Assembly: GCA_012295275.1 (NCBI GenBank)
Contig: CM022670.1
Coordinates: forward strand, 41,664,001-41,728,000
DNA from: Chrysomallon squamiferum
Lineage: Eukaryota > Animalia > Mollusca
Length of the DNA: 64,000 nucleotides
Direction: 5' to 3'
Position 1 is the first letter of the stretch; every line of letters begins with the position of its first letter. The notes under the pieces are model-generated. The model was given only the letters and a program-made list of their open reading frames with translations. It made no database searches and was not told where the DNA came from. The position numbers and the translations under genes are program-made. Positions 12,884 to 61,749 of this stretch are shown piece after piece.

Positions 12884-14697
12884 ATGTTGTACTTACTGGC
12901 AGCATCTGTTTTTTTTTCTATAAATGTTTACATTTCAGGTATTTACTTTTTCATATCTACTGAATATCTGTTTATTTTGTTTCAGTTTCATTATTTCATT
13001 TTCAGCAATTTTTTAAATACTTAAATGTGTAATAATGTGTTTTTTTTCTTCAAATCATGCAGAATTTGTCCAGTTCAATTTTAATTGCTTTGTCAGTTTT
13101 TTAATTGTAGAAAAAACAACAACATTAATCATTATAATAACAGTACTGCTGCTACACCTTCTATTACAATTACTACTACTACTTCTACTACCACTACTGT
13201 TACTAATACTGCTGTTACTAATACCACTGTTACTGCTGCTAATAATTTTACTTCTACTAGTAATAGTACTGTTACTACTACAATGTTGTATTACTATGAC
13301 TGCTACTACAATTACTAATTTTTATAATGACAAACCAATATACTTATAATTACAAAGTTAAATGACAAATTAATTTATTCATTTGATAGATCAAATAAAA
13401 TGTAATAATAATTACACACATCAGGAGCAGTATGGAACATTAGGTTCCAGTTTTAGTGGATTTACCTTATTTACTGATATGTTCCTTAACTTCACATACG
13501 TATAAATGAGAATATTGCTAACAGATATAATGATTATTCATCTTTAATGCTGGGCTAGCTACTCTGTAGTATCTGTTCAGAAGAGTAGTGATTGAACATG
13601 GAAATTATAACTATGTTTTGAATAATAATTACACTATTGACAAGAAAGTTTTAAAGGTGTTTTTTCATGTGTGAAGAATTAAAAGAGTAGGAGAAAGATA
13701 CCTTATGGGTAGCGCTAGCAGCATGCAGATCTGTTGAAATATGAAATTGGGAACTGCTGCTGTGACATAAGAAAGAATATGTGTGTGTGTTTGTATGTAT
13801 GTATATGTGCATGTGTGTGTGTATTATAGATATAGAAACACAATAAAATAAAATAAAAAATACTAAATAAAAATATTTTCATTAAATATTTTCTTGTCAC
13901 AATTATAAAGTAGTTTTACTTTTGCTTACTTCATTTTAATTTTACATTGGCAGCAATAAAATATCACTGCATGTTAATGCACATTATTTGTATTTTTATA
14001 TTTAATTAAGTTTCATTCAATATGGAATGTTGATAATCCATTAATCAAGTAAAATTATGTTTACAGTTAACACATACTTATCTATGAATACTAGTATATA
14101 TTAAATAACAAGTATTTTGATAGATATACTTACAAATATATGAATTAAATTCAACAACAACAAAATATATATATATAAAATAATGTATAATTATGAAATG
14201 TAATAATCAACATATAAATAGGACTGACCAGATATATTTTAGAATACCTACATGTGCAGTTTTTGAACATTATAATTTATTGCAGTCAACGTATCAAAGC
14301 TGTTTATTCCATGTTTTTATCATTTATTTTCAGAACCACATGGTTTCTTTGATGGTAATTACTTTATAATTTCTATTTAACATTTAAAAATAATATTTTA
14401 AAATTAACAACAGGACCTATGACAACAAGAACAACAATAATAAAAAGGAAATGAAACAGTAACATCAACTATATTTCTTTACTTCTCTTGTTACTCCTTC
14501 ATTTATTATTGTTGTTGTTGTTGTTGTTGTTGTTGTGGTCATCATCATTTAATTGAAGAGTCTTTTTTTCTTGTTTATTATTTATTATACTTTTAATCTC
14601 TAATAATTTTTATCTTTATAATCAGCTTATGTCAAAATGTCTAATAATACACTTTCTAATTTCAGTCAAAACATTTTTACTCAGATTATATTATATG

Positions 14698-14760
<63 letters not shown>

Positions 14761-17700
14761 TTTGTGTGTGTGTTTTGAGGGTTTAGAGCCAGAAGGTGGT
14801 AACAGCATTTTTGCCAACTTGAGAAAAAAACAAAACAAAGTTTCAGTTCTCTGGCATTTTCATATGTACTGACACAGGTTTTTGAAATTACATGTTTACT
14901 GCTTGTTGAACAACTCATCTGTTCAGAATTGTTCAGTTCTAGTCATTGGCTCACCTCAGAATCACTTACAACATTTTGGCATATGAAGTGCAGATAAATT
15001 TGCATATTTTTACCAAACAATATCTTATATCCAATGCAATTATAATCCATATAATCTTAAAACATGTTAAAATACAGTAAAGTGTAGAACTAGTTAGAAC
15101 AAATGGCCAGGTATAAAAACCTGAAACGCAGATTCCAAAAAGTTAATTTGATGTAATAAAACTATTATTTACAAATTAAACCTTTTAATGTTCACCTTCA
15201 CTTGTCAATCTGATGTTTATGATTCATGTTAAAACTGTATTGACATATCTTTGTCATGGCCAAAATAACATTGTCAACATGTTTGGGCAGAAGTGTTATA
15301 TTGTATATAAGGAGTCCAAATCTTTTTTAGTTATTGTGAATGGAGGATCTGAGACAGAGTCATCTGAAAAACCTAGATTTGAAATGTCTGATTTGACATT
15401 TTGTGATATTTTAAAAAGTGTTCTGTAGCATTTTCGTTTTAGTTCATTCTCTGTTAATAACTTGTCTGAAATTTGACTTTCTAAAGTAATATTTCATCAG
15501 TATCAAAGATCCTTCTGACTTCATCCCAGTTCTCCTCTGTATGTTCATACTCCATTCCTGTAAATATTGGATGTACAAAAACAGTGTTATGTATATATAT
15601 GTTTTATCTGTTTGAAAAGGATTAAGTTATGTGCTTAATTAACGTAATGCAGTACTAACCAAATAAGAGCAATAGTCCAATAACAATAATTAAGTTGACA
15701 TATTATTTATAACTAATGTCACTATATTTTTTTTATTTTTTTTTATTATCGTTTAACAAAATTGAAGTAATAATGCCGAGGTGGTTGCATATAAAATATA
15801 TAAAGTGGCATTTGTTTTATGACAATTAAATTATTAATATTTAACTTACATTTTTTTGTTCAGCTGTTGTCTTCTCAAAATAATCATTATTTTGAAGAAG
15901 ATGGGATAAAAAAAAAATAGAACCTCTGTCTAATAGACAAATGTGCCAACGTTTTAATATAAAACACCAAGAAAATGTTGACATGAGTTTAAATAACTGG
16001 GAGACTGACAGGAGGGTAATCTGTTAATTAGCAGATCAAATTAACAGTGCTCTTGTAACAATGGCTACAACCATAAAGTCATAACTGCCCATACTCTTTC
16101 TCATCCTGGCTGGCTTAATATTTTAACACAAATGTACTGACTTCATTGGAACCAAAATGTTGTCAGTGCAGTTACGATTTTTTGGCACTAACAAATATTC
16201 ACTTACTATCCATACTCACTTACGACTATGTGGTTCTGATTGATATCTCAAAACATTATTCTGCTACTAACTTGATTGATAAATGAAAGAATATACTGTT
16301 GTAGTGTATTAGTGGTAAAATGTCATTTTCGTAGAAAATGCACTTAAATCCTTCGGGCTCTAACCCCTCTATATATGTGTGTGTATATATGAAGGTGTAA
16401 AATAAAATAAATAAACTGAAATTGTTTTAGACGATTTTATACTAACGGGACCTACAGAAGTCAAAGAGGGTCAAAGAACTGAGTATCTGTGTAAAATCCC
16501 TATGAAGCCAATAATCGAAGTACCTATGGCGTTTTCTGTTTTTGGAGAGGTAGTGTGTGCTGTCTTCCCCAACTGCAGTGTTATTATTAATGTGCCAGCT
16601 TATGAATGTAGCTGTGTGAACTCCACAGACTTGACTTCTAACTACAGAATGACGATGAAATATCCGACTGTAAGATATGGTCCTGGACTGTATTGTTCAT
16701 TTGCAGCTCAAATGAGCAATACAATTTATCTCTCGATTTACAGTAAGTTCTCTTTAATTTCTGGGCTGTTTGTCCCTATAACTCCCGAGATACACATACA
16801 CACCAGGATCCAAAAGAAACTTTACCATATTTTTAAACAAAAATTCTAGTTGAAAACATAGAACAATGATATACGCATGAAGTAAAATGTGTTGAAAAGA
16901 ACAATATGTCGACGTAATAAAAACTACAAAACCATAGAGCATCCGATAATAATGTCAGAATTAGTCAAAATGATGTGAGGTGTTAAAATGAAACCTTTAA
17001 CTTCAATGACCACACCCTCAACAAAAACAAAAAAAACAAACAAAAAAAACTGATGCATGGAATCAGGTCACTTTGGTCACGTAGCCATTCTCTTTCTGTG
17101 ACCTGAATCATTTCTTGTTGGACTGGCTGTGGGTGTGGATGTTTTCTAACACGAAGGTTCGTGTTGTCTCACAGGTGCACTGTTGAGGAGTGTGGTGAAC
17201 ATGCAGATTGTTGCAAGGTGTTGAGCTTGTTCGTTCCAAACACTTTTTGTATAATTCTGGAAAGATGACAGCACGACGCTGCTGTTTGAGAATTGGAAAG
17301 ATATCGGAAGTTGAATATCGTCGATGTTTTACGCTGGGCTGTCACAATTCTTGTCCACGGCAGCTTCCTGAGCACTTCCAGATTGAAGCACATTACACTG
17401 AGAAGATCGCTGAGAGGCTGCTTGAGCTGTAGCCCCAGATAGTAAGAGGCCTGTCAGCTACCTTTATTTCAGAACTCTCAAAAACCCTTAAACTGTACAA
17501 ATAAATATTTGCACGTTCAGTTGCGATTGTTCGTGCTTTTCGCGTATTCGTCCGAAAACCTGTTTGCATTATTGTCTACATACACTGCACTTGGATTGTG
17601 TTTTACCTTGTTTAGGTTTCAATTTGACAATGGTGAAGTTTCTGTTGGCTAATGTCACACATAAACATATACACTTACAGCCACACACGCAAAAGGACTA

Positions 17701-19231
17701 AATAGTAAACATGTTATTTTACAAATGTATGTTAAATAAGTGTGTTCATACACAGAAAATAATATTAAATTTGTGCATTTTCAAATACAGATTTACAAAT
17801 GGACATTAAATAATAAATATGTTCAGATAAATATCTAAAATCACACACGAAACAAAGAAATAATTATGTTCATACAGTTTTACATTAACTTATTAATGTG
17901 ATAGTACTAACAAATAGTCTACGTTTATATTAACTTATTAATGTGATAGTACTAACAAATAGTCTACGTTTATATTAACTTATTAATGTGGTATACTAAC
18001 AAATAGTCTACGTTTATATTAACTTATTAATGTGATAGTACTAACAAATAGTCTACGTTTATATTAACTTATTAATGTGGTAGTATTAACAAATAGTCTA
18101 CGTTTATTTTAACTTATTAATGTGATAGTATTAACAAATAGTCTACGTTTATTTTAACTTATTAATGTGATAGTATTAACAAATAGTCTACGTTTATATT
18201 AACTTATTAATGTGATAGTATTAACAAATAGTCTACGTTTATTTTAACTTATTAATGTGATAGTATTAACAAATAGTCTACGTTTATATTAACTTATTAA
18301 TGTGGTAGTACTAACATAGTCTACGTTTATATTAACTTATTAATGTGGTAGTACTAACAAATAGTCTACGTTTATATTAACTTATTAATGTGATAGTATT
18401 AACAAATAGTCTACGTTTATATTAACTTATTAATGTGATAGTACTAACAAATAGTCTACGTTTATTTTAACTTATTAATGTGATAGTACTAACAAATAGT
18501 CTACGTTTATTTTAACTTATTAATGTGATAGTACTAACAAATAGTCTACGTTTATATTTCCAAGTAATTCCTTTATTACTTTTACTTCTTGCTACACTTC
18601 ACCTATAGTGGTGCTAACAAATAGTTTCAGTATATTCTGCATGTGTCAAAACACTGTTTTAGCTGTTTAGTGTACAATCTGCTTGTATCATCGTATTATT
18701 TATCACGTACAGACCGCGACTGACAGTCTGACACATTATATAACACTTCCACGAGCACAAAGACAATATGATGATAAAAACAATAGTAATTCCTGATAAC
18801 AAAAAATCTGCAATCTGAAACTTAAATAATATTGATGTTTAACAAAGAAAGAAAACTCAGAATTACCACCTTCGTATCCACGACACTTTTTAATTTATTT
18901 ATTTATTTATTTGTCTGTTTTTATTTGTGTATTTTGTTTTCAGGGGAATACAAGTTCTTCACTGGTATTTACTTTCACTTTTCTGTTTACTAATAATAAT
19001 TTAACAAAAGCAACACAGACATCATCAACAACAACAACAACAAAAAACCCACAACAATAACAATAATTCTGTATCGTCCTTGTTCGTTTTTCATCATCAT
19101 CATTATTATTCAAAAGAATCTTTGTGTTATTTGTGTTTCTTAACAATTTATTTCACTTATTTATCCTTTATTTACCTTTTTACTAAGCTTATGTCAAAAC
19201 AACTTTATTCAAAATATTTTTACTGAGTTAG

Positions 19232-19267
<36 letters not shown>

Positions 19268-19639
19268 AACAAAAAACAAAGTCAACCCTAAAAATTGTTT
19301 TAGAGGATTTGGTCCTATCGGGACCGAACAAAGTGCTGGAGGGTAATCGAACTGAGTATGTGTGCAAGATTCCTGCGAAACACATAGAAAAAGTACCTAT
19401 GGTTTTTACTTTATTCGGAGGAGTGGTATGTGGTGTCTTCTCAAACTGCAGTGTTTACAGTGCCAGGCCTGGCTATAAATGTAATTGTGAGAATTCCTCT
19501 GACAGTGCTTCTTTCTACAGCATGACGATTGAAAATCCCAAAGTGAGAATTGGTTATCTGTTTTGCTCATTTCAAGGCCAATTAAGCAATAAAATTAAGC
19601 TACAAATCTACAGTAAGTTTTTCACATAACTATAGCTTT

Positions 19640-19737
<98 letters not shown>

Positions 19738-19789
19738 ATACTTATAAAAATATACACACACAACACATAAATGAATTACATTATAAATC

Positions 19790-19834
<45 letters not shown>

Positions 19835-21277
19835 CAATAATTATCATTTACATAAATTATAATTCTGAAATATAATAATCAACATCACCAGCGTGTAAAA
19901 AGATCTATATAGTACCAGATGTATTTTAGTTAGAATACCTACATGTCCAGTTCTTCACGATAACATTATAATTTGTGGTAGATAACATACGAGCGCTATT
20001 CTTACTACATATTTTTCTATGTTTTTGTTTTATTTTCAGAGATCTACCGGTTCTTTCCAGGTATTTACTATAGCTTTTCTATTTAATATTCCAAAATTAA
20101 AGTTTTAATAATTACAACTACTAACATTACTGCTCCTTCTACCATACGAACAACAACAACAATAATAATATGGTTCTCATTTGTTTTATTTTATTTATTA
20201 TTATTGTTGTTGTTGTTCTTACTATTATTATTATTGTTGTTTTTATTTTTATTATTATTATATTTGTTATTCGAAAAAATTAAAATGTTTCCGCTCGCTA
20301 TTTGAATTTACTTATTTTCATCTTTCTATCACTCACTTATTCTTATATTTAATTCTTAATAATACGTTAAGTAACATGAATCAAAATATTTGAACCGAGT
20401 GAAAACATTTTATTTTTTTTATTTTAGATGATTTGATACTGACGGGACCTAGAACCATCGGATTCGGCAAACTTGTTCAGTATCAGTGCAGAGTTCCTGA
20501 GGAAAAAATTGAAAACGTTCCTCTGGTTTTTGGGACCATAAACGTTTAGTTTGTGCCGTCATGCCAGACTACAGCGTTCGTGATTGGGTGGATGGCTTTG
20601 CATGTGAATTTTTGCATTCTTCAGTAGATGCTTCTTACTTTGCCATGACGATTGATATTCCACAAGTGGAACACGCTCATTTGATAACCTGCTCATTCGA
20701 GGGTCAACGGAGCAATCAGATTGAGCATAAGATAGAGTAAGTTTTTTTGTTTTGTTTTTAAGTGTTGTAACTATAGTTGTTGTTATATGAAACTGTGCAA
20801 AAGAGTGCAGAGTAGGTTTTTCATATTGTAACTGTAGTATGTGCAAAATAGTGTATAGTAAGTGATATATATATATATCGTAATTATAGTTCTCATATCT
20901 TTTGTTACATGAAATTGGGCAAATGTTTTTTTTTTTTTTTTTTTTTATATAATATTGTACTATAGTTGTTGTTGTATATCTATGTAGTGGTTTTTAACCT
21001 CTTTTTGTTCTGACACACACACACACCCTTATATACATACATTATATAGCTGCTTTTGTTTTAAATGTCATTTAGCGGTGTTCAGTTCACTATTACTTAG
21101 CTGAAAAATGAAATCGGTGTATGTTTATAAATAGAAGACAATAACAAATAAATAAAAAAAAAAAAAAAAAAAAATAAATAAAAGGAAAATAAAATACATT
21201 AAGAAAGATATAATAAAAACATTTGTATTCTTTTCAGACAAGAAAATCTGCAGCCCGGGTATAACACAACTATTTGA
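12884..21277 (+). CDS. Cluster gene A: secreted protein with 3 Cys-rich Ig-like domains (~362 aa if a 1-nt deletion near 20530 is repaired)
   Basis: Signal exon 12884-12938 (MLYLLAASVFFSINVYIS); micro-exon 14334-14354; domain 16431-16742; micro 18944-18964; domain 19304-19612; micro 20040-20060; domain 20428-20736 (frameshift in a T run); tail 21238-21277. All junctions GT/AG with compatible phases. Confidence 0.78.
14777..16369. mobile_element. Non-autonomous DNA transposon with 20-bp GAG-initiated terminal inverted repeats, in gene A intron 2
   Basis: GAGGGTTTAGAGCCAGAAGG (14777-14796) and CCTTCGGGCTCTAACCCCTC (16350-16369) are 18/20 complementary. The intron is ~1.6 kb longer than the equivalent intron in paralogues. 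Confidence 0.65.
16980..17640 (-). mobile_element. Possible degenerate Tc1/mariner remnant
   Basis: GC-richer block with no counterpart seen in paralogous introns; broken minus-strand translation only weakly resembles a Tc1 HTH region. Confidence 0.3.
17885..18556 (+). repeat. 45-bp minisatellite in gene A intron 3
   Basis: TTAACTTATTAATGTGATAGTACTAACAAATAGTCTACGTTTATA in tandem; period 45 (17885 to 17930). Confidence 0.95.
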
Positions 21278-21888
21278 AAAACGTGGCTGATAATCCATGT
21301 ATATATATATATATATGTATAAAACCACATCTAATTACGGCCATTAATCATTGTCGTTTGCTTGTGTTGTTATTCATTCCCGCTGTAAACTACATCTCTA
21401 ATGTGGTGCAGAGGTTCAATTCTTGAACGAAGCTCTGAACCCTTCAAGTCCTGTTTTTTCTCCTCTGCGACACCATACTGCTACACACAGACACTAACGC
21501 ATAATGTACAGACGTAATTGTGTACGACGTAATATTTGGGCATGACGTAATATGATTTAATATGTGTGCATGACGTAATATGGCATAATATGTGTGTATG
21601 ACAGTATTACGTTCTATGTGTGTATGAATAATAAGACGTAATATGTTTGTATGACAGTATGCCAAAATATGTGCGTATGAAGTAATATGTGTGTATGATG
21701 TAATATGACGTAATATATGTGTTAGAATACAGTACCACGGTGTGTCGAAAAGAGCAGTTGTGACAGTGATTATAGGACTACTGGTTCTCTGATATTTACT
21801 TTCACTTTTTACTATAAAAACAAAAACAACATTAATAATAGTATTGTTCTCGTTGTTGTTTTCTTTATTATTTTTGTTGTTATTGTTA

Positions 21889-21929
<41 letters not shown>

Positions 21930-22901
21930 GTCACACAGATTAAAACAAAGTTCATGTTTTGGTCTACATAGTCACTGCCATGCTACACTTCATCTATTCT
22001 CAGTATGTATGTATGTATGTGTGCATGTATGTATGTATGTATGTGTGTGTATGTGTGTATGTATGTATGTATGTGTATGTGTATGTGTGTATGTATGTAT
22101 GTGTATGTGTGTATGCATGTATGTGTGTGTATATGTATGTGTCTACGTATGTGTGTATGTATGTGTGTGTGTGTATATGTATGTTGTGTATGTGTATGTG
22201 TGTATGTGTGTATGCATGTCTGTGCGTATGTATGTATGTATGTATGTTGTGTATATGTATGTATGTATGTGTGTGTGTATGTATGTATGTGTGTGTGTAT
22301 GTTTGTTCTGTATGTATGTATGTATGTATGTATGTGTGTATATATATGTTTGTATTTTGTTTTTATAATTTTATACAAGTCGGTGTTAATGGTTAACCAT
22401 TGTTTATCAAAGGCCATTCTATGGGAAGGAGAATATAATAGATTCGTGACTGCTAGCTGACAACAAAGAATGTAGGATATAAACCGCTATGACAAAAACC
22501 AGCGAATAGTAATCCTCCAGTGGTTTTGCAATGTGGAACAAAAGACACCCCCCAAGTGAAAAGAAAAATGGTATGACAAAAGAACCCAGCCGCCTCACCC
22601 CCAAAGAATAAAAAAGCTATGTTCATATCTCAGTTAAGACTAGGATACAGTTTGAAGAGAAAATTTACATGAAACCACACTACAGTTACCTGACACAAAA
22701 TGAGAATATAGTACATTTTGGGAATTTCACCTTTTTGAAAATTGAGAATAATTTACGAAACCAATATCAGAAGATTACGAAATTTGAGACGTCACTGGAT
22801 ATAATGACTTGATGACAAAGCCATTTCGTACATTCTGACATGTTTGCTATGTCTCTAGTATGCATGCAATGTGGATCAGCAGTTATTTTATTTATTACTT
22901 T

Positions 22902-23046
22902 TTAAACAAACATTCCCTTCATAAACATCTTCAACTTCCCAAGGGAAGTGTTTAATCTGAAAGTAATACAAAGGTTTTTACAATACCTTTCTGCATGTGT
23001 GAACGCTTTTGTTCTATAATTATTATTATTATTATTATTATCATCA

Positions 23047-23123
<77 letters not shown>

Positions 23124-23357
23124 GGATTTAGAATACAAACGTACTCTGATTTTAAATTTTTAGTTACATGACCAAGTGTGCGTGTGTTCTTGTGTGTGTG
23201 TTTGTGTGTGTGTGTGTTTGTGTGTGTGTGTTTATGTGTGTTTGTGTGTGAAGAAAGAGTGTTTAAACAGTATACAAAGATAAAACGAATGAATTAGTTA
23301 TAAAAAAAGAACAAAACAAACAATACAAAAAAAAAAAAAAAAAAAATAATAAATGAA

Positions 23358-23393
<36 letters not shown>

Positions 23394-23991
23394 AAAAAAA
23401 ACACTACTTACTCTACACCCTGCAGGTAAATGATATTGCTGATTTGACCATGAAATGCACAATACACCAAAGGACCATACATGACGTCTTTGGGATTTTC
23501 AATAGTCATAAGGTAGTAAGAAGCTTTGTCTGTGGACATCACACATTTACATTTATAGCCGTTCGACTGATTAGGAACACTGCAGTCTGGGAGCACAGCA
23601 CACGTAACGCGTTCACTGACCAGAAAGAGCATAGGTACTTCTCTTATTTGTTTCACAGGAATTTTGCACACAAAGTCAATTGAATCACTATCTACAATTA
23701 TTTCAGGTCCCGTCAGTTCTAAATCGTCTAAAATAGTTTAAGAAGAAACAATCTGAGTGAAGTTTGCAAAAGTATTACTGGATGTTTTGTCAAACATTTA
23801 ATGTGAAGCTAACTCAGGAATAAACAGGTATACTATGTTCAGGTAATATAGATAAATAGAATAAGGATTCTTTCGAATAAATACATAAAGAGTGAGAAAA
23901 AAAAAAAAAAATAAAAATAACATCAACAATAATAATAACTATAAGTAATAATAACAAGAAGAGAAACAACAAAAAACAATAATAATAATAA

Positions 23992-24062
<71 letters not shown>

Positions 24063-25043
24063 GATTACTATTGTGGTTGTCGTTGTTGTAATTATTATTA
24101 TTGTTGTTGCAGCTGTTTTTATTATACTTTTATTTTTTTATATTAATTACAAAAAGGAATTTTTACCACAATAATATCGGTGGATTTCTGAAAATAAAAC
24201 AGAAAGATATGAAATCGTGACATAAATAGCTTCGATACATTGAAAAGAAGAAACTATAACGTTATATGTAGATCTGAACATATAGGTGTCTCAAGTACAA
24301 TATTACACTTCTTTATATATGTTGATTACTACATTTCGTAATTCTCATTTGTATTGGTATAAACGTGTTTATTATTGAATATACATTTGTGAATAGGTGT
24401 ATAAAACTATTTATTTGTTATTTAATGTATATTTGTAAATGTGCATATTAAAATATACATAAATATTATTGTAAATGTATGTGTTTCTAAGCATGTGTGT
24501 GTTGGTGTGTGTGTCTATATATATATATATGAGTGAGAAGAAAGGGCTTTCTAAATATCAGGATAGAAATATAACATGTTACAGTATGAAAAGCTCACCG
24601 TAGACTTGTATGCTAATTTCGTTACTCAGCTGATCGCTAAACTTGCAAGATGCAGAGAATCCGTAAACCTCTTTGAGATTCTTCATCGTCATTACGTAGT
24701 AGGAAGCTCTGTCTGTGGAGTTCACACATTTGCACTCATAGCCGTAGTGAACGTCAACTGCTTTGCAGTTTGGGAAGACAGAACAAACCACTTTGCTAAG
24801 CGTAAGAAAACTCACAGGCAAGTCCTTTATTTGTTTGACAGGAATTTTGCACACGTAATCAGCGCGTTTACCAGCTTCAACTAACATCGGTCCAGTTATT
24901 ACCAAATCCTCTAAAACAATTTATTATTTATTTATTTATTTATTTTTATCTCAGTAAAAATATTTTCAATAATTATTTGAAAAAACCCAACATATTAGAT
25001 GTTTTGACAAAATGTGAAATATATAGGTAACAAAGGTAAATGC

Positions 25044-25110
<67 letters not shown>

Positions 25111-26364
25111 GACAAGAAACCAGTGACTAATATGAGAAGAGATCGATTGTTGTTGATGCTGTTTTTGCTCTATCTTGTTGTTGTTGTTGCTGTTCTTTCA
25201 GCTATTTTTCATTTTTTCATTTTTGTGTTTTTTAATTGAAGCTGTTCTTGTTACTACAAATATTATTTTTGAATATTAAATAGCAAAATAAAGTTAGTAC
25301 CAAAGAAGACTCGACCGGGTTCTGAAAATAAAAGTAAAAGACAAAAACGTGGCAAACATATATTTAACATATGCAAATTATAATGCCATAATTTAGAACG
25401 AAATATACTGAAAGTAAATTTGTACATGATACTTTCAGAGCTGCTTTCCAAATCTTTCTCCTACAACTTTATGTCTATTCAGTTAGTAAGGAAAAAAAAA
25501 TATATAAAGCTTTCATTTTAATATGTTGTACCAAGCACAACACCAATATAAGTGCAGTTCGATGATTTTGTCACTTCAATTTCGAGTAGCTGTCATAGCA
25601 GAGATGAATAATCGTAATTGTTTAAAACAAAGAGAAATAAGGTAAATTCCCTAAAAGTGAAACCGAATTTTTCCAGTGGCAGAGGTTGCAAATTGAAATG
25701 AGGTTCCTTCCGCTAATTTATGTTAAAATGTATTACATTTAAAAAAAGATAATAAAGCAGTAGCTTAGCTTTTCAGCTATCAGTATGTTGCTTTATTATT
25801 ACCATACTTCGTAATATTAGTAAAAGTAGTAGGATTGGAAGTAACAGTAGCTGTACAGTAGTAAGTGTAGTACAGTTATTATTATTAGTAGTAATAGCAG
25901 TAGCAGTAGAACGGTAAATGCAGCAACAGTCGTAGTAGTAGAAGTAGCAGTAGTTGTTACAGTCATATTGGCACAGCTGTGTAAGTAGTGGTGTAGTAAT
26001 AGTAGTAATAGTATCTTTAGTAGTAGATGTAGTATTATTAGTAGTAGTAGACGTAAACATAGTAATAGTAGTAGCAGTAGTAGTAGTAGTAGCAGTATGA
26101 TCTGAGTTTTTCTATCATTAACTGAAAGTTATATGATCTGGAAGAAGGTTCATTTTGTATCTCAGAAGCAATAACAATTTTAATTAATAGTTTCTAAAGA
26201 AAAAAGAAGACATTATTACACATATAAGCACTAAGGAAATTGCTGAATAAAATACTATCTAGTTTGATAGAAAATCAACTAATCAATATTGAATAGAAAA
26301 ACTAAATACCTGAGATGTGTACATTTATAGAAAATAAAACAAATGCTGCAGGTAAAAAGAACAT
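22902..26364 (-). CDS. Cluster gene B: secreted 2-domain Cys-rich Ig-like protein (~259 aa), intact
   Basis: Signal exon 26364-26310 (MFFLPAAFVLFSINVHIS); micro 25321-25301 (EPGRVFF); domain 24910-24599; micro 24187-24167 (EIHRYYC); domain 23727-23412; tail 22956-22902. Confidence 0.82.
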
Positions 26365-28458: not shown

Positions 28459-28747
28459 CAAACAAAGAAACTAAATCGATCCTTTGCTGTAAGCAAACTG
28501 ATCAGTAGTTGTTATCTGTTTGATGTTTAGATATTTGTTTTGTGTCTGTTTTACCTCAAATAAATAGTTTTATTACATTTGCCATCATACAACAAGAACA
28601 TTTCATCGTTCAGTGATTACATACACATGCATTTTGTTTATTAGACTATCAATCAGCAGTCATTTTTAAAATTATTATTATTTTTTAATTACAAGAAGCT
28701 TTTTACATAAGGTCTTCTTCTTTTATAAAGTTTGTAGAATTTTCTGA

Positions 28748-30654: not shown

Positions 30655-30685
<31 letters not shown>

Positions 30686-30970
30686 GTTAGGAATTGATTA
30701 GACTCTGCAGATAAACAATATCGAGGAACGCACAGGAGGTTAAAGAACCTACGGCACCCATTCTCGCGCACACCGAAGTACAAATGTATATTAAATAATA
30801 AATATATCCATTGTCACACACTGTGTGTGTGTGTGTGTATGTATGTATAGATACATACATATACATACATACAGACATACATATACGTACACATAGACAC
30901 ACATATACACAGACACACACACACACACTTTATTAAGTTATATATGTGTTTGTGTATTTGTGTATGGAAC

Positions 30971-31064
<94 letters not shown>

Positions 31065-31516
31065 TAACTATATACTATCTAGAAAAATAACTAAAGCCAG
31101 TCTTCCAATAATTGTTAAGAAAAACTTACCGTAAACAACGAGCGTAATTGTGTTGCTTTCTTTATTTTGATATGAACAAAATATGCGTAAGTTATACGTC
31201 TTTTGGGCTTTGACGATCGTCAGAACGTAGACAGAAGCATCCTCTGTGACGGTTCCACATTTACACTGATATTCCCTGGACACAGCATGAGCTGAGCAGC
31301 CGGGTTTGATCACACAAACTAACCGTCCGAGCGCGGAGAACACAACGGGACCATCTTGTATTTGTTGCATGGGAACTTTGCACTGGTATTCGACTCGTTC
31401 AAAAATTCGGATTTTTGTTTTCCCCGACAACACTAGGTTACCTAAAACAGTGTGTTGGGAAATGCATTAACAGATGCGTGGACAATAAGCCGAATATAAT
31501 GATGACAGAGATTTTG

Positions 31517-31548
<32 letters not shown>

Positions 31549-31589
31549 AAATTTAATACTGCACAAATAGTTCAAATCTCTTTCAGAAA

Positions 31590-31644
<55 letters not shown>

Positions 31645-31710
31645 AATAATCTGTAAAATAAATATGTAATAAACTCAAATCGCACAAAAATTATTTCGAA
31701 TAAATAAATA

Positions 31711-31748
<38 letters not shown>

Positions 31749-40239: not shown

Positions 40240-40539
40240 ATTTTTTTTTAAAGTTAAAAAGAAAAGAACATCTGACAAGAATAGTTTAGACATTAATTGC
40301 TGATTTCAGTAAATTATTTTATCGTGTCTAAATAAACAACTAATATATATATATATATTATTCAAATATATATATATATATATGTTATATAAATTTTCGA
40401 TCTAATATTTCTGATGGTTATCCTTTTTTCTATTCATAAGTATGAAAGCGCAGCGTTATTGTGATTTGTGTCCGTGGAAATGTCATAGAGATTACAGATT
40501 ATTTGCTTTTACTATCCCACTTAATTTAATCATTAATGT

Positions 40540-40590
<51 letters not shown>

Positions 40591-50324: not shown

Positions 50325-52790
50325 ATGTTCTTTCTATATCCAGTATTTGTTGTGTTTTCTATGAATCTGCACATTTCAGGTATTTACCTTTTCGAATCGA
50401 CTGAATATAGACCTGTTTATTTTACATCAGACTAGATATATTGTTTTCATTTCAGAATATAGTACTTAAATTTCATTTTTCAAAAAGATTATACACAGAA
50501 TTATAGACATAATCAATTTCTATCACACTGCCAGATCTAAGACAAATCTTCCAGTTTAGATAACAGTTCCTCTATAGCAGAAAAAAAAGAGAAGTTTTTT
50601 CGTAATAAAACTACGACTCGTACCACCAGAACGACTTACGCTAACAACTCTTACTACACTGCTACTGCTGTTACTAGCACTCTGTTGTTGCTACCACTTA
50701 CATTAATACCAAAATTGTTACTACTACTACGACTACTAATCTTTACTATCCTAATAATAATAACACTCTTACTACTACTACAACTACTACTGTTACTAAC
50801 ATTACAAATTCTTGTAATAACAAACCAATATATTGAGGACTAAAAAGTTAAACTATGTCTTCATTTATTCATGTGACAGATCAAATAAAATGTAATAATT
50901 ATTGTAATAAAAAATGGAACATTTGGCTACAGTTTTAATGGATTTACCTTATTTACTGCTATGTTCCTTAACTCCTCCAATTTGAAAATGAGAATATTGT
51001 TAACAAATGATTATTCATCTTCAACTACAATGATAACCACTGGAATTCGAATCAATCAAGTTATAATGGTATTCTGCTTATTGCTCTGAGCATTAAAGAG
51101 AAAGCTTTAATTTCCTTTGTGAACAGTTGTTGTGTTCCTTCCCTCCAAATACTGTACACAGAATACTGTTTAAAAAATACGATTAGATTTCCCTAGTGTT
51201 TCGTTAGCCAAAAGGAGTCATAAAATGATCGAATACTGCTTTTATGATGATATTCTGCTTAGTACTTAAACTATTAAAATGAAATCTTTAAATTGCTTTT
51301 TTGCGTCGCTAAATAAAACTAAAGCGATAGGAGAAAGAGATTTTCAAGGCAAACATTCAGTGATGCATACAAATCTGCCGAAATATTTATGAAGTTTTTG
51401 AACTGCTACGACAGGAAAGAAAAATAGAAGAATACTAGTCACAAATTTGTATCAGTATGTTCAACTCTACATTATAGCATTATAGTTGTTTGTTTTTCTT
51501 TCCATTTTAATAAAAACTATTTTTGCTACGTTCTTAATCTTTGTTTTATTTTCAGAGCCAGGCCGAATGTTCACTGGTAATTACTTTAGTTTTCTGTTTA
51601 GCATTTAAAAATAATACTTTTAATGACAATAACAGCAGCAGCAGTAATAACAACAAAATAACAATAAAATACCACAAAATGAGAAACAAAAATAAGGTTT
51701 CTGTTCTTCTCGAGATTTATTCAATTTTCTTGATTACGATTCTTCTTCGTCTTATTATTATTATTACTGTTATTATTATCATTATCATTCTTATTTTAAC
51801 TGTTATTATCATTATTATTATTGTTATTACTGTTATTATTATTATTATCATTATTATTGTTACTCTTATTATCACTATCATTCTTATTTTTAGTGTTATT
51901 GTTGTTATTATTATTATTTTCATCACTATCATTGCCATTATGACTACTACTGCTACTCCTCCTCCTCCTCCTCCCTCCTACTACTACTACTATTACTACT
52001 ACTATTACTACTACTACTACTACCACTACTACTACTACTACTACTGTTTCCGTTTTAGAGGATCTGGTTCTGACGGGACCATTAGTAGTTGCAGACGGGA
52101 AACGCGCTGACTACGTGTGCAGGATTCCTGTCAAACAAATAGAGGAACATCCAGTGATTTTTGTTTCGGCTGGAAAGACGGCATGCTCTGTTTTCCCAGA
52201 CTGCAACGTGCGCGGTGCTATGTACGGCTATGAGTGTAAATGTGTGAACTCCACAGACACAGCATCTTACTACGTAATGTCGATTAAAAATCTCAACGAT
52301 GACGACGGACTTTTAGTACATTGCTCATTTCACGGTGAGCGAAGTAACAAATTGTGGGCAATGGTTTATCGTAAGTTTTCCACATTCTGTCAGTATTCAT
52401 ATTCTATGCAGCTGTGTTTATTAGTTATTCAGTTGTACATGATACTATTAAAAATCGAAAAATTTGAATAATATACATGTATAATAAAGAAATACAAAAG
52501 TGAATTATGAAAAGTAGTAATCGGCGTATAAAAAGAACTGCATAATGATCAGATATATTTTAGTTAGAATACTATATGTTCAGTTCTGCATGATATAATT
52601 TGATAAAGTCAGTATATCTTCATTCTTTTCATTTTTTCAGGAACCCAACGATATTTCACTGGTATTTAATTTCTCTTTTCTATTAAAAAGTAACAACAGT
52701 AAGCAACAGTAGCAACAACAAAAACAATAAGAAATGCAACAACAACAATAATTATCCTAGTGTTCTCATTATTACTTTATTTTCTATTTG

Positions 52791-52834
<44 letters not shown>

Positions 52835-53353
52835 TGTCATCATTATTTATCTATTTATTTATTTTAAAAAGCCTGTGCTATTTCTCTTTATTTCATACAC
52901 AGTTTCAATATTTATTCCTCAGTTAGTTTTACATTTAACGTTTGTCGAAACATCAAGTAATACTATTACAAACTTCAGTCAGACTGGTTCTACTGAACCT
53001 GTTTTAGACGATTTAGAACTGACGGGACCTACAACGATTCACGATAATGAACCGACTGAGTTCGTGTGCAGACTTCCTGTGAAACAAATAAAAGAAAGAC
53101 CTGTGACATTTTTTGTGCACACAGTGGCAGCATGCGCAGTGTTCCCAAACTGCACGCGTGTCGCGCACATGAACACGTATCAGTGTAAATGTGTCAACTC
53201 CACAGCCAGTGCTTCTTTCTTCCTCATGACGGTTAAGAATCCTAAAGAGATGTGTGGTCCTTTGGTGTATTGTGTTTTTAACGGTCAACTGAGCAACGTA
53301 ATTGAGGTACAAGGTGTAAAGTAAGTTTATATCTGTACATCTATATGTAATAA

Positions 53354-53406
<53 letters not shown>

Positions 53407-53742
53407 GATTACGGCTTATGTTTGATTTATAGGGATGGTTTTTAATGATTCTTTCCCCTGACACACACACTCACACACAAACACACACACGCACACAAAA
53501 ACACACATGCACACGCACAGACATACACATAGACACACACACACGCATAGAAATAACACACATACACACTCACACACTTACATTCTAGAGACGTGCTATT
53601 TTAAATGTCATTTAGCGATATTCAGTCCATGATCGTTTTCCAACTGTATAAATAATACAGATCATACTAATACTAATATTACTACTAATACTAATAAAAA
53701 ATAATAATAGAGTAGTATTAGTAGTAACAATGGTAATAGTAG

Positions 53743-53775
<33 letters not shown>

Positions 53776-53886
53776 TGTGGTTTTAGTACTAGTAATAGTG
53801 GTAGTAGTAGTATGAACCTACAAGCAAAAAGATATAGTAAAAACATTTGTATTGTTTTCAGACTAAAGGATCCGGAGATGCAATAG
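50325..53886 (+). CDS. Cluster gene E: secreted 2-domain Cys-rich Ig-like protein (~248 aa), intact
   Basis: Signal exon 50325-50379 (MFFLYPVFVVFSMNLHIS); micro 51556-51576 (EPGRMFT); domain 52059-52370; micro 52641-52661 (RTQRYFT); domain 53008-53320; tail 53862-53886 (KLKDPEMQ*). Confidence 0.85.
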
Positions 53887-55118
53887 ATGTCTTTGAAAGC
53901 CTAATAAATAAAAGTTACTGTTGGTCGATACCCCCTGTACATATAAATTGTTAGGAACGTATGAACAATGGCAGAACAACAAAACGGTACCACTGTTCTA
54001 GGAAAAAGTGTTGTCGTGATATGAAACACTTGTAGCCAATGAAAATTATTATATACAATAAATGTAACTGTTTCAGCAAGTGGAAATCCTGACTAAATAC
54101 ACTGGTACGTGCTAACATCAGTCAGTAATATTAAATACCATTGGAAAACCAGTACGTTCTTAAGGTTATCGCAACACAGCATACCTAAACTACGCTACCC
54201 TGACCTAACCTAACCTAACATGACCTGACCTGACTGATCTGATCTGACCTGACCTGACCTGACCTACCCTACCCTACCCTACCTAACCTAACCTAACTTA
54301 GCCTAACTTAACCAAATATAAGATAAAGTAAGATAAGATGTAACAAGACGTGACAAAATATGATAAAAATAGTATACACAAATACCCAGTAAGTCCATAT
54401 GACAGTGATGATTCTAAAACGTGTATGAACGGAGCAGGGATAATAAAGTTGTCCTGAGAAAGATTAATTCCAGACGGCCTCTGGGAGATCATACTTTGTC
54501 ATCTCGAGTCGAAACTTCGAGAAGAACACTGTTAAGATTATCGTTCTAAACACAAAAACGTCGTGTTTATGTTGTTTATGTACAGCTAATACGGAATGCA
54601 TTTTTTCAGTAACATCGTGACTCTTTTCCACTTATTTATTTTGAAATGTTTATTGTTAACTTACAGCATTACATCATCATTAGTTTTAATTCTTCTGTCA
54701 AAAGAGAGAGCTAATTTTCTTACAGTTTTATTCTTCTTCTTTATGATTAATAAATGTAGGTTGATTTTGTGAAACTAGAGACAAAAATATGTTATTTTCA
54801 CCAGTTAGATGAAAGCAGACCAGAACGGAAGTCAGTCTGACAGTCAAAAGATTTAAGGGAGAAAATGCATATGTTCATCTCTCACTAACAGTAATTTTCA
54901 TAACATCTGTCTCACAAAAACGTAAATCAAACATGACTGTGACACGAGCAAAAAAAACTACTTGAAACATACAAATAAATTAACTGTAACTGTACAGGTG
55001 ATTCTTACAGTTCTGGCATGTGTGTGTGTGTGTGTGTGTGTTTTTTTTTTTTCTTGTGCGACTGTAATTCTCTATAAGTATTTGAATGTGTGTGTGTGTG
55101 TGTATGTGTGTGTGTGTT

Positions 55119-56188: not shown

Positions 56189-56385
56189 ATGTTATTTTTA
56201 CCTGTAGTACTCGTTTTATTGTCTATAAATCTGCACATTTCAGGTATTTACATTTTCATATCTATTGAATATATATTTATTTTGCAGCAAACTAGACATC
56301 GTTTTATTTTCATTAATTTTGTTAGAATTTATGAATCTAATATTTTATTATTTAAATATATTATTATTATCACACACACACACAT

Positions 56386-56416
<31 letters not shown>

Positions 56417-57157
56417 GAACTTGTCCATCTCAATTTTTATTGGTTTGATATACGGAAAGTACGTCATTTATTAAAATCGAATAATAAATAAATAAAATAA
56501 AATAGAATAATAATTTTTTAATTTAAAAACAAAATCGATTTTGTTGCCACTTTTCACGAATGATTCGACGACTTTTCAAGATCGCATTACATTTATAACA
56601 TTCCCACTACATTCCTTAACTCCGAACATTTGTAACTGAGAATTTTAACAGAGATACGATTATTCAACCTTAGTGATATGCTAGTCATTTGAAATCGAAG
56701 TGATAAAATGATCGAACACTGCAGTTGTCATAGTGTTGTACTTATTAGTATTACAATGAAAGCTTTAAATATTTTTTCCCTTTAAAGAGATAAAGCTGTA
56801 GGAGAAAGAGATTTTGGAGGCAGAATACAAATCTGTAGAAATAGTCATAAAGCTTTGAGCTTCTCTGAAAGGAAAATAAAATAATGTCCAGAATTACTTT
56901 GGATAAATTTTTTTTCAGTACCTTTAGTACCACATGATAACATTGCACATTTGTTGTTGTCAGTATTTCAATATATAAGTAATTTTTGACATCTTTTTAT
57001 CTTTTTATTATTTTTTTTTCAGAGCCCACCCAACACTTCACTGGTATTTACTTTTATTTTTCTATTCAACATTTTCAAATAAAAGATACAATATGTCAAC
57101 AGCAACAGTCAAACATGCAGTAATAGTTCCATTTTCTTTCATAGCTCATTCGTTTTC

Positions 57158-57229
<72 letters not shown>

Positions 57230-57895
57230 GTTGTTGTTGTTGTTGTTGTTGTTTGCTTTGAAAAATCTTTGTGCAATCTGTTCTTATCATTGATATATTA
57301 TACTTATTATGTTCATTTTTTTGTCAAAACGTCTAAAAATACATTTCCCAACTTCAGTCAAATTATTTTAAATAATCATTTAAAAATTATATATATATAT
57401 ATATCGCAAAAAAAAAAAAAAAAAAAAAAAAAAACAGAAAAAAAAACAACTAAATAACAACAACAACAACAACAAAAAAATAAAAAAATAAAACAAATAT
57501 ATATATATATATATATTTATTTATTTATTTTTTTGTTTTTATTATTATTTTTTTATTGTTTAGTGCCTATGGTGCTGACGGGAAAACATTTCGCTGTAAA
57601 CGACAAACTAGCTGAGTATCTGTGCAGAGTTCCTCTGAAACAAATCCATAAACTACCTGTGGCGTTCACTGTGAATAAGTGGGCGATATGTGCTGTCTTC
57701 CAGGACTGCACAGTTCTTGGTGTTGTGGACGGATATGAATGTAACTGTGTGAACTCCACGGACAATGCTTCTTACTACCGTATGGCCTTTTTTAATACCA
57801 AACTGAAAAATAAATTTGATGTAAAATGCTTATATGATCATCAAGAAAGCAATAACCTTAAAGTCGTGGTTTACAGTAAGTTTTGCATATCATAA

Positions 57896-57980
<85 letters not shown>

Positions 57981-58823
57981 CATAAACATGTTCACTGTTC
58001 TTATACACACACTAACGTGTAAATTATAGTAAATGTGTTCACACATATTTACAAATATGATTTAAATAACAAATATTTTCATACACATATTTACAAATAT
58101 TAATGTAAAAACAAAACTTTGCACAAACACATTTTTCAATACAATTTAAATAACAGCTATGTTCACACAGATATTTACAAATACAATTAAATAAATATAT
58201 TGAACACATTTCCAGATATAATTTACATAGCACACATGCTCACACATATATTTACATATTTACATTAAATAACAAATGTTTTCACACACACATTTACAAA
58301 TGTGCATTAAATAGGAATAATGAAAGTTGCTTTATCTATTTCTTGTTAAAGTGTACAAACGTCTTTTTATCAGCCCCGTGTAGAATACCGGCCCTGTTCA
58401 CAACCTGACACATTTTATGATACTTCCGCAGACACAAAGACTAATGACACTGTGATGATAAGAACAACAGTGATTCGTCACACAGCGATTCGTTAAAAAT
58501 CTGAAATCTGTAACTTAGATTATATACACGTATAGTAACTAAATAAAACCTAGAACGAGCAAATGTAGGATTATTAAAAAAAAGGATTGGATGGTGACGA
58601 GATACATTTTAGTTAGAATACTACACGTCCAGTTCTAAATGACAGACTTATAACTGGTTGTATATCAAAGATATACTTGCCACACTTTCATATATTTTAA
58701 TTTATTTTCAGCTAACAGAAACTTCTTCGAAGGTATTTTCTTTCTTTTCTATTAAAGTTTAAAATTATTATTTTAATAATAATAGCACAATAATTATTTT
58801 TCTCGTTATTTATTAATTTATTT

Positions 58824-58854
<31 letters not shown>

Positions 58855-59437
58855 GGATTTTGTTGTTGTTGTTGTTATTATTATTAACTTCGTCGTTATT
58901 ATTGTTATTATTATTATTGTTATTATTATTAATCTGAAGAAACCTTTGTGTTATTTGTTTTTATTACATAGTTATTTACTATTCTAGTCATCATTTATCT
59001 TTGTATTCAACTTAGGTGAGAATATCGAATAATACTTTATCAAACAACAATGAAAATATTCTTACTGAGATAATAAATAAATAAATAAATAAATAAAGGA
59101 AAGCCAGTACAAGAAATGTGAAACTGTTTCAGAGGATATGGTTCTGACTGGACCCACAGTCACCCGGCAGAACGAGCCAGTCGAGTACGTGTGTAAAATT
59201 CCAGTCAAACAAATTACAGACGTACCCATGGCTTTCTTCGTCTCTCAGATGTCAACATGCGCTGTGTTCCCAGACTGCAGCACTCGTGGTGTTCTGAACG
59301 GCTATCAGTGTAAATGTGTGAACTCCACGGACAAAGCTTCCTACTACCTCATGAAAGTCAAAAATCCTGAAATGCTGTATGGTCCTTTGGTGTCTTGCGG
59401 ATTTCAGGATCAGATCAGCAACATAATTGAGCTGTAG
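56189..59437 (+). CDS. Cluster gene F: secreted 2-domain Cys-rich Ig-like protein (~237 aa); TAG just before the final donor
   Basis: Signal exon 56189-56243 (MLFLPVVLVLLSINLHIS); micro 57023-57043 (EPTQHFT); domain 57564-57875; micro 58712-58732 (TNRNFFE); domain 59133-59445 with TAG at 59435-59437. Confidence 0.8.
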
Positions 59438-59549
59438 GTTGTAGGGTAAGTTTTTGTTTTGGTTCTTTTAAAAAAAAAATATTGTCATATATACGCAACT
59501 GCACACGCAGACACATAAAGTACCACCATCATCTAATTATCCAAACTAA

Positions 59550-59608
<59 letters not shown>

Positions 59609-60170
59609 AAACAACAACAAAAAAATACAAAAAAAAAAAAAAAAACCAATAAAAAAACAATTATTATATTTAAATAAAATAAAAGCTTTGACACATAAAG
59701 AAGGATATAATAAATATATTTGATTTAATTTCAGTGCAATGAATCGACCACTCATTGGAAAGCAGAAGTAAAAACATAAAAGAATAAAATAAAATGAAAT
59801 AAAGAAAACTAGATTCTGATTGATAACCCGTTGTACATATAGTTTGTAAGGGAGGAGGAATACACGATGGAAAAAATAATTTTAGCGATAAACGCAACAA
59901 AACTGATCGAAAACAGCAAATACTGATAACTGAGATTCTAACAATGTAGTATTGCTGTTAATCACTATGAGACAAATACATACATAGACTGAACTATGTC
60001 AGTACGTGAATATACAACGTATTGCATACACTTATACGCAAACCTCAGTCAGTCAATAATAATTATGTTAATTAGCATCAGAAAACCAGCACGTTTTTAG
60101 GAATATAACAGTTCAACATAGCACAACATGATATAACGTAACATAACTCAATAACACAACAAATGCCACA

Positions 60171-60220
<50 letters not shown>

Positions 60221-61694
60221 CATACAAATATACATTTTTGTAGATGCTACGTTAGTTTACGTGATGCTGTATAATCTTACATTTTCTAAGTTTCTGTCGT
60301 CTTCTGCTGGGTGGTTTCATTATATATTAATTATATCTGGTGCAGCATGTTTAACCATTTAGCTCATTTTATCATCATCATCATCATCATCATCACCGCC
60401 ATCATAATCATTATTATTATTGTTATTTTTGTTTTTCTTTTATTATTATGATAATTATCAGAATCGTCATCATTATTATTTCCCCTTTAATAAATGTAGA
60501 TTTATTTTATGAAACTAAAAAAGAAACGTGCAATATGGCATCGACCAGTTAGACCAAAGCAGTGAGGAATGGCAGTCAGTCTGATAGACGTAACACAGTG
60601 TGTGGAATGTTCAGTAAACACAAAGTTACTAAACAAAGTTACACTGAACCGTCATGTTCTGTAGTCATCTGAAACGTTGATGTTGTTTTGTTTGGTGTTT
60701 TATATTTAACCGAAAGGCAGTCGACTTCGTAATCTAATTTTATACATAACAATAAACATCTCCTACCTTTCCAGCCAACTTATTTATAGCTGAAATAAGC
60801 AATTTCATAATTAACAGATCAGTTTCATAGTTTGTTTCACAAAATAATAAACGTTTACCAGATCTGTAAAATGCCTCATTCAAAGACTGTTTTTTTGTAT
60901 TAGTGATAGCCATTGATGTGATGTAACAGGACTGCATGACAGATGTACGTGTGGTCAAGTATAGTCAACCTACGCAATATTTGTCTACTGATCAAATCCA
61001 CAGACTTCAACATTGTAAGAAGTGAAAGCTTTGTTTTAAACGTATTCATTTTTAGACGGATTAGAACATTTTATTATCTATTTTTCCACACATATATACA
61101 CACACACACATATACACACATACATATACACACATACATAGACACACACACACATATATATATATACACACACACACAGACACATATTTTAAATTTTGTC
61201 AAGTACATTATTAGCATCATTTAATACATATCCGTTTGCTTAACTCTTTAGAAACAAAAGTATATGTCTCTAGTTATAAAGTAGAATGTTAAATGTAAAC
61301 AAAATGCTGTGTTATACGTGGATATGGGTAAGCGATTGCTTTAAAACTTCTTCAACATATTTTTGAAATCTACCATTGTCAGATTTGTGTGACTCATATA
61401 ATGTTCCAAATCAAAACTGATTCAATTCATGCTTTTACAGATGATATTATATTAGTATTTATTTACTTATTTTATTATAAAATCAGCTGTGTGATTATTT
61501 CATACTGCAATAAGGTTAGCAGCATCAGCTTTACAATGTTTTCATTAAAACTAAAATATATAAATAAATGACGTGAAATAAAACTAAACTGTTGATGTCA
61601 ATCTGATAATGTGTCCCACTAACATCTGGTGTATGCAGATGTGCTGTGTGAATATATTCACAGATAGCTTTAGAGACACACACCAGATTCAGAG

Positions 61695-61749
61695 ATGGGT
61701 TTTTTACCTGCAGCATTTGTTTTCTTTTCTATAAATGCACACATCTCAG
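61695..61749 (+). CDS. Cluster gene G: signal-peptide exon only; the rest presumably lies beyond the window
   Basis: 55-nt exon MGFLPAAFVFFSINAHIS-G|GTACTT, with the same TCAGAG-ATG context as its paralogues. Confidence 0.75.

Follow-up and report, generated by a model that had tools for sequence, protein, structure and literature searches.

A stretch of 64,000 nucleotides (nt) from Chrysomallon squamiferum (contig CM022670.1, positions 41,664,001 to 41,728,000; hereafter the window, whose own coordinates are used throughout with the strand in brackets) carries, from 12884 to 61749, a cluster of genes for proteins with a leader peptide and tandem immunoglobulin (Ig) domains of the variable (V) type. 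The evidence gives good support to the conclusion that this gene family is real and that its domain is an atypical V-set domain with a clear diversifying surface. We propose, with about an even chance of being right, that these are secreted binders or decoys made of V domains only, which evolve by birth and death and whose GFCC' face would bind variable foreign targets, most likely the surfaces of microbes or parasites. The diversified soluble Ig proteins known from invertebrates (FREPs, CREPs and VCBPs) carry a lectin or chitin-binding domain. The cluster therefore raises the question of whether V domains alone can act as a soluble recognition repertoire, and offers a mapped and testable variable surface for it. 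It represents a class of mollusc Ig genes overlooked by profile-based immune surveys, and its growth is on record in copies that brought along an upstream region common with a NUDIX housekeeping gene.

The window has 31% G+C, is rich in microsatellites and contains spliceosomal introns. Seven leader exons of 55 nt, each running from ATG to GT, were located by DNA match to the first copy, which they resemble at 45-51 of 61 positions, the best non-leader site reaching 36. Fourteen domain exons were found by profile search of the window, and a clear gap separates the weakest (expectation value, E, 4e-24) from the next match (E 0.18). Both counts agree with an earlier prediction made from the sequence alone, as does the alignment of the domains with the consensus given there. 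Twelve of the 14 domain exons are open; the other two, the third V exon of gene 1 (1c, domains being named by gene and order) and an orphan exon, are frameshifted, and the open exon 6b has a stop three codons before its end. The original prediction of at least seven genes is matched by the seven leaders, but only five two-domain genes are complete and open, since gene 1 has a broken third domain and the window ends within gene 7; one broken orphan exon stands besides. Genes 2 to 6, here as throughout genomic models, have open spliced frames of 259, 230, 243, 248 and 237 amino acids (aa), or 24-27 kDa without the leader, and the introns in all gene models are GT..AG.

Self-comparison of the masked window first revealed three further elements: a microexon, a last exon and an upstream element. 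The microexon, flanked by TTTTCAG and GTA, precedes 12 of the 14 domain exons; eleven copies are 21 nt long and the remaining one 18 nt, and all 12 are open in the required phase, encoding a 7-residue linker of the type x-P-x-R-F-F-T. Its splice pattern, which was derived from the copies themselves and so faces a lenient null, has 13 matches in the window (the 12 microexons and the acceptor of the gene 1 last exon), whereas 40 resampled windows average 1.2, or 0.05 at these lengths. In the sequence, the family's repeat unit is seen to pair a 7-residue microexon with the V exon behind it. Behind each of the six last domains stand a homologous acceptor and a last exon, and the phase set by the donor adds 0-18 residues without a membrane segment. 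The earlier gene models had missed the microexons and the last exons; the earlier description of single-exon phase-1 domains stands for the phase-1 start but not for the last domain exon, which ends in phase 2.

The proteins are likely to be secreted. The leaders encode a hydrophobic stretch of 18 aa, and none of the five complete models has a transmembrane segment, the top 19-residue hydropathy after the leader being 1.09-1.47. No lectin or fibrinogen exon was seen among the window's open reading frames (ORFs) of at least 90 aa, which were read by eye, with eight other ORFs scanned with Pfam. Hydropathy and ORF survey thus both agree with the predicted lack of transmembrane, lectin and fibrinogen domains, and the short tails without an anchor fit the soluble, Ig-only architecture that had been proposed. 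An N-x-S/T sequon is present in the DE loop of 8 of the 12 open domains. A downstream transmembrane exon was considered and rejected, as the 10 hydrophobic windows in six regions, judged by eye, include none common between genes. In frame 0, three of the last exons, from 22956(-), 39123(-) and 53862(+), contain an open stretch of 19-25 residues with E/I-D-V-F/Y-E, though the upstream donor sets frame 1; this might be what is left of an earlier coding tail. We did not adopt a model in which the last exon codes in frame 0, as the last V exons read best as phase-2 ends and the last-exon indels are not consistently frame-keeping. Exon 4b also has a donor just after a stop.

Structure prediction assigns the domain to an atypical V-set-like Ig fold. 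AlphaFold2 was run with the 12-sequence domain alignment, and domains 2a and 3b, the latter the most divergent, were folded with predicted local distance difference test scores of 89.8 and 88.3, respectively. Foldseek groups domain 2a with antibody V domains (template modelling score up to 0.85), and full structural alignment of this domain against 48,161 chains gave Z 14.0 and a root-mean-square deviation (rmsd) of 1.9 over 100 of 103 residues, the matches listed being antibody, T-cell receptor or CD8 chains. For domain 3b, Foldseek returned nothing at E <=0.001 (best 0.0024, to nanobodies), which was resolved by the full aligner with Z 11.5 and an rmsd of 2.2 over 93 residues. No VCBP or other invertebrate V domain is among the 50 matches listed for 2a or 3b; as antibodies crowd the structure library, the rank order gives the fold and not the nearest relative. 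Both predicted models contain the V-frame beta-sandwich with strands A, A', B, C, C', D, E, F and G, and C'' appears as a 2-residue bridge in 2a and a 3-residue strand in 3b. The Ig sandwich expected from the sequence was therefore recovered, more exactly as V-set-like, with the earlier strand assignments in agreement with the models.

The domains were compared with V-set criteria (Cys23, Cys104, hydrophobic residue 89, Trp41, salt bridge and tyrosine corner) taken from PMC9546547. The B- and F-strand cysteines, C20 and C88, are present in 12 of 12 domains, and position 73, the site of hydrophobic residue 89, is Met or Leu in every one. The C-strand Trp and the D-x-G-x-Y-x-C motif had been described as degenerate, and they are: Phe replaces Trp41 in 12 of 12 domains and, with positions mapped by spacing, Asp stands at Cys-6 in one of 12 and Tyr at Cys-2 in none. 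There is no conserved Arg ahead of strand D for the Arg75-Asp98 salt bridge, and the Gly16 turn position is Gly in 7 of 12. Cysteines number six in nine domains, seven in one and four in two; C42 and C59 are invariant, and C48 and C61, which are missing jointly from 3b and 4b, can for that reason be taken as a pair. Two extra disulfides, C42-C59 and C48-C61, are accordingly predicted from the sequences beside the B-F bridge C20-C88. Complex prediction for the two domains 2a and 2b scored 0.13 against a mark of 0.34.

The open domains are 23-61% identical (median 42%), with nine invariant alignment columns, and their tree supports the groups (2a,5a), (3b,4b) and (2b,5b,6b) at 93-99% and is weak elsewhere. 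The overall ratio of nonsynonymous to synonymous substitution rates (dN/dS) is 0.68 under model M0, with a median dS of 0.87. Site models point to positive selection, twice the log-likelihood difference being 15.1 for M1a against M2a (p 5e-4), 26.0 for M7 against M8 (p 2e-6) and 18.6 for M8a against M8 (p 2e-5), and they put about 31% of sites in a class with a dN/dS of about 1.8. The observed statistic (17.9) exceeds the values from all 37 neutral simulations, whose maximum was 9.1, and the result holds under F61 frequencies (14.2) as well as when domain 4b is left out (18.5). That the array is largely silent and decaying, its divergence being relaxed constraint, is very improbable on these data: the 14 domain exons include two with a frameshift and one with a late stop, and a microexon is missing, but 12 exons have stayed open at this median dS with the nine columns unchanged, all modelled splice sites are canonical, and every microexon is in frame. 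Somewhat less improbable, though still poorly matched to the data, are gland secretion or mucus components, structural or defensive, amplified for dosage. Extra disulfides and glycosylation sites would suit a harsh extracellular setting, and the common upstream element described below would permit co-expression; dosage, however, predicts homogenised copies, and the copies observed have this low identity and a class of sites with dN/dS above 1.

The variation appears to gather on one face of the domain. Nineteen sites with a naive posterior of at least 0.9 fall in A', the C-C' hairpin, the C'-D segment, the DE loop, alternate F and G residues and the FG turn, and none of them is an outward B, D or E position. 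A model-free comparison agrees, mean entropy being 2.66 bits at 10 outward front-sheet sites versus 1.51 at nine outward back-sheet sites (p 0.0003); the contrast is also present in first and later domains taken separately, and inward sites are alike. The BC and FG loops, which in antibodies are the complementarity-determining regions CDR1 and CDR3, are comparatively conserved, with entropies of 1.42 and 1.06. On the predicted models, then, diversity would be placed on the inferred GFCC' face and not in antibody-type BC or FG loops. Gene conversion has probably occurred in the cluster, to judge from exons 1c and 4b, which share a tract (20490..20600(+) in 1c, about 39665-39550(-) in 4b) identical at 109 of 111 positions, the remainder of the exon agreeing at 96 of 135. 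These exons have 82 identical polymorphic sites in a run against a permutation maximum of 47, and among 78 exon pairs they alone pass the corrected threshold. Fast evolution with births and deaths, as first suggested, is thus borne out by the divergence of the domains, the class with dN/dS above 1, the frameshifted copies and the conversion tract.

A binder or decoy family would work as follows. The proteins would be secreted, folded in the endoplasmic reticulum and N-glycosylated, and would share a conserved scaffold whose front face differs from paralogue to paralogue, with the GFCC' face serving as the binding surface for variable targets. Two V domains per protein could provide avidity or two specificities, and proteins that have no effector domain might coat, agglutinate or cross-link, opsonise, or act as decoys. 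Several points weigh against this proposal. The selection test was run in code of our own, with 12 sequences each about 103 codons long, a weakly supported tree and branch lengths scaled from M0, and its null was simulated without recombination, though conversion occurs in the cluster; the overall dN/dS of 0.68 also means that some of the divergence comes from relaxed constraint. Which positions point inward and which outward was set by DSSP strands and alternation, without coordinates, although hydrophobic contents of 88-92% versus 36-45% support the split. The leaders lack a basic N-region and have His or Tyr at -3. The immune role itself is argued from analogy, and we hold it to be evenly balanced; ligands of reproductive and host receptors carry the same evolutionary signature.

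It is on the whole unlikely, but deserves the most attention among the alternatives, that the proteins are reproductive recognition factors (of egg coat, sperm or egg mass, or pheromones) whose variable face is driven by sexual conflict or species recognition. They are small, disulfide-rich, positively selected and probably secreted, which is the typical signature of gamete-recognition proteins. The predicted domain, however, is a V-set with a B-F disulfide and not the ZP-N fold, with its own disulfide pattern, of mollusc egg-coat proteins, and divergence over many coexisting paralogues (23-61% identity) speaks more for a repertoire than for one lock with one key.

The proposed binder or decoy role can be set beside several described systems. 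The VCBPs of amphioxus and Ciona are likewise secreted proteins with two tandem V domains, encoded by clustered duplicated genes (PMC2632668, PMC4757023); their hypervariable regions are displaced from the antibody CDRs, one VCBP3 cDNA would encode two V domains alone, and their V domains promote phagocytosis of bacteria (PMC4757023). They differ by a chitin-binding domain, V domains spread over 2-3 exons and phase-0 exons, whereas the present family has a single-exon V domain with a phase-1 start and a microexon, no chitin-binding exon and no sequence match. The VIgLs of gastropods (FREPs, CREPs, GREPs and free-standing Ig superfamily, or IgSF, genes) resemble it in their signal peptide, in one or two divergent IgSF domains missed by standard profiles, and in clustering (PMC7588048, PMC10075465). 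In contrast to FREPs, CREPs and GREPs, the cluster models have no interceding region, fibrinogen, C-type lectin or galectin domain and run on for 0-18 residues past the last V domain; one FREP sequence, compared by eye, keeps a G-x-Y-x-C F strand and is without the C'/D cysteines. The claim that the family is architecturally distinct from FREPs and VCBPs is upheld in the gene models by the lack of fibrinogen, lectin, galectin and chitin-binding exons and by the single-exon V domains. Snail genome papers mention free-standing IgSF genes and 36 IgSF profiles without a fibrinogen link, so that Ig-only mollusc genes are already known to exist, and the present family may overlap with them.

The Alr genes of Hydractinia are also clustered, and their V-set domains also escape Pfam and were found by AlphaFold and structure search, with Z 12.6-16.7. 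They encode mostly membrane receptors with V-set, I-set, Fn3-like and transmembrane segments, in which the B-F cysteines are missing and the salt bridge is retained (PMC9546547); the present family keeps the B-F cysteines, adds two pairs, and has lost the salt bridge and the tyrosine corner. The PSGs of bats (CEA family) are secreted, Ig-only and of recent expansion; positive selection has acted on sites of their CFG face, and a decoy role has been proposed, but they are mammalian, have one IgV and one IgC domain and derive from a known membrane receptor (PMC5594555), so that the likeness is one of analogy, with no homology shown. Oyster CgCAICP-1 and Lymnaea MDM are mollusc Ig-domain proteins implicated in defence (PMC6994640, PMC11999971); the former has a transmembrane domain, and the latter, described as a single molecule, has five C2-like domains. 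By analogy, the cluster family may work like VCBP V domains or bat PSGs, yet the tests that define FREPs, CREPs and GREPs, VCBPs and Alr place it outside each of them. These comparisons also bear on the idea that the proteins are secreted partners of IgSF receptors of the same animal, acting as ligands or decoys and engaged through GFCC' faces, as adhesion molecules are, in a self-recognition or wiring code. It gains from the fact that the variable surface is the one used by CEACAMs for homotypic and heterotypic contact (PMC5594555) and from Alr, likewise a cluster of genes whose V-set domains are no less atypical (PMC9546547). We nevertheless consider it rather improbable, as no membrane-bound paralogue lies within the window and the recent pseudogenes and conversion suggest a turnover faster than would be usual for developmental codes.

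Sequence searches returned no relative. None of the 12 domains matches the Pfam Ig families (V-set, I-set, ig) at E up to 1, PDB sequences gave no match at E up to 10, and there was no match in a search of 5.8 billion proteins with domain 2a (four candidates) or with the alignment at longer lengths (5317 candidates), among 1.84 billion representative proteins, in an exact look-up of eight translations, or in Rfam. Metagenome contigs yielded 58 protein stretches, none of them confirmed, and no match to the leader-exon DNA pattern. These libraries are mostly microbial, so the blank searches are weak evidence of novelty. In the ESM Atlas, the nearest clusters, at 0.93-0.95, hold unnamed proteins of 105-121 aa, and two of them are commonest in Mollusca, with a phylum recorded for only 12 of 57, 6 of 111 and 6 of 62 members. 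The family had been called lineage-specific; the lack of a sequence relative agrees with this, but in view of the Atlas clusters a wider unannotated mollusc family may exist. No description of this family was found in the literature searched, which included few subscription papers. We put forward tentatively, at somewhat less than even chances, that this is an undescribed and possibly mollusc-wide, germline-encoded and antibody-like repertoire of secreted V-domain-only proteins, in which the GFCC' sheet face instead of the CDR loops would be diversified by duplication, positive selection and conversion, and which microexon linkers and lost V-set motifs would hide from standard annotation.

Gene 1 (12884..21300(+)) has its leader at 12884-12938, microexons at 14334-14354, 18944-18964 and 20040-20060, V exons at 16431-16742, 19304-19612 and 20428-20736, the last of which (1c) is frameshifted by a 1-nt deletion, and a last exon from 21238. 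A weak, degenerate microexon-like match beyond it, at 21779-21831(+) (E 0.024), is perhaps the remnant of a lost copy. Gene 2 (22850..26364(-)) comprises a leader at 26364-26310, microexons at 25321-25301 and 24187-24167, V exons at 24910-24599 and 23727-23412 and a last exon from 22956. For gene 3 (28640..34047(-)), with its leader at 34047-33993, V exons at 31441-31130 and 29607-29304, a microexon at 29875-29855 and a last exon from 28748, the stop codon arises at the junction with the last exon, and a first microexon before V exon 31441-31130 was looked for and not found. A decayed transposase-like stretch in its first intron (32290-32900(-)), which we presume to be of Tigger/pogo type, though Pfam gave no match to confirm this, adjoins a possible remnant of that microexon. 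The exons of gene 4 (39020..43114(-)) are a leader at 43114-43060, microexons at 41796-41779 (the 18-nt copy) and 40156-40136, V exons at 41404-41090 and 39723-39417, and a last exon from 39123. Gene 5 (50325..53960(+)) has a leader at 50325-50379, microexons at 51556-51576 and 52641-52661, V exons at 52059-52370 and 53008-53320 and a last exon from 53862; gene 6 (56189..59830(+)) has the same arrangement, with its leader at 56189-56243, microexons at 57023-57043 and 58712-58732, V exons at 57564-57875 and 59133-59445 and a last exon from about 59735. The stop in its second V exon (6b) lies at 59435-59437 and trims the G strand. Contigs of run X1, which is possibly not independent of the source of the window, agree with exons 6a and 6b and with part of 5b, differing in 1-2 letters per exon, and the contig across 59109-59476 has one other letter, which is not at the 6b stop. 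Contigs of three RNA runs (X2-X4) leave the V exons of genes 5 and 6 uncovered, which speaks neither for nor against their expression. Gene 7 is represented by its leader at 61695-61749(+), and its remainder would fall past a satellite and the window end. The orphan pseudo-exon (34569..35035(+)) is an inverted copy of the first V exon of gene 4 with 95% DNA identity, frameshifted and without leader or microexon. The frameshifts in 1c and the orphan exon, as read in the assembly, may be real or may be assembly errors.

The upstream element, of about 250 nt, has one site per leader (seven of seven), in the orientation of the gene and 0.4-3.9 kb upstream of the leader; it may be a promoter, an enhancer or an untranslated exon. 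That of gene 1 (10051..10305(+)) lies between this gene and a NUDIX hydrolase gene (8094-9741(-), Pfam PF00293), which we take to be NUDT15-like and which stands head-to-head with gene 1; the other copies are at 28084-27990(-) with 27787-27690(-), 38150-37890(-), 43729-43481(-), 48021-48209(+), 54766-55024(+) and 60506-60587(+). The first coding exon of the NUDIX gene is intact at 9741-9583(-), and three decayed copies of it (36406..36516(+), 44732-44806(+) and 47868-47815(-)) sit upstream of genes 3, 4 and 5, each facing a cluster gene head-to-head in the way that the NUDIX gene faces gene 1. Together, the upstream element and the NUDIX exon copies indicate that the duplicated unit took in the common region between the head-to-head genes. 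The sequence shows that the genes arise by local duplication and inversion carrying the upstream region and are lost by frameshift.

About 100 nt before each ATG is also conserved (12780-12884 and six homologous regions), with a ATTCACTGATA-like core and TCAGA(C/G)ATG; these may be GATA-like sites or an acceptor. Upstream of the cluster lie exons of a KY-like gene (1810-3635(-)), in which the ORF at 2595-1810 matches PF23265 (KY-like Ig domain) at E 2.5e-26; a sequence search with the flanking KY-like exon returned nothing. A 121-aa ORF at 46895-47257(-) has a weak, sub-cut-off Pfam match to DUF6768 (E 0.003), probably by chance. Minisatellites of about 45 nt occur inside the cluster at 17853-18688 and 45336-46783, and others at 48520-49663 (about 38 nt), 11036-12225 (22-26 nt) and 62240-64000 (30-35 nt).

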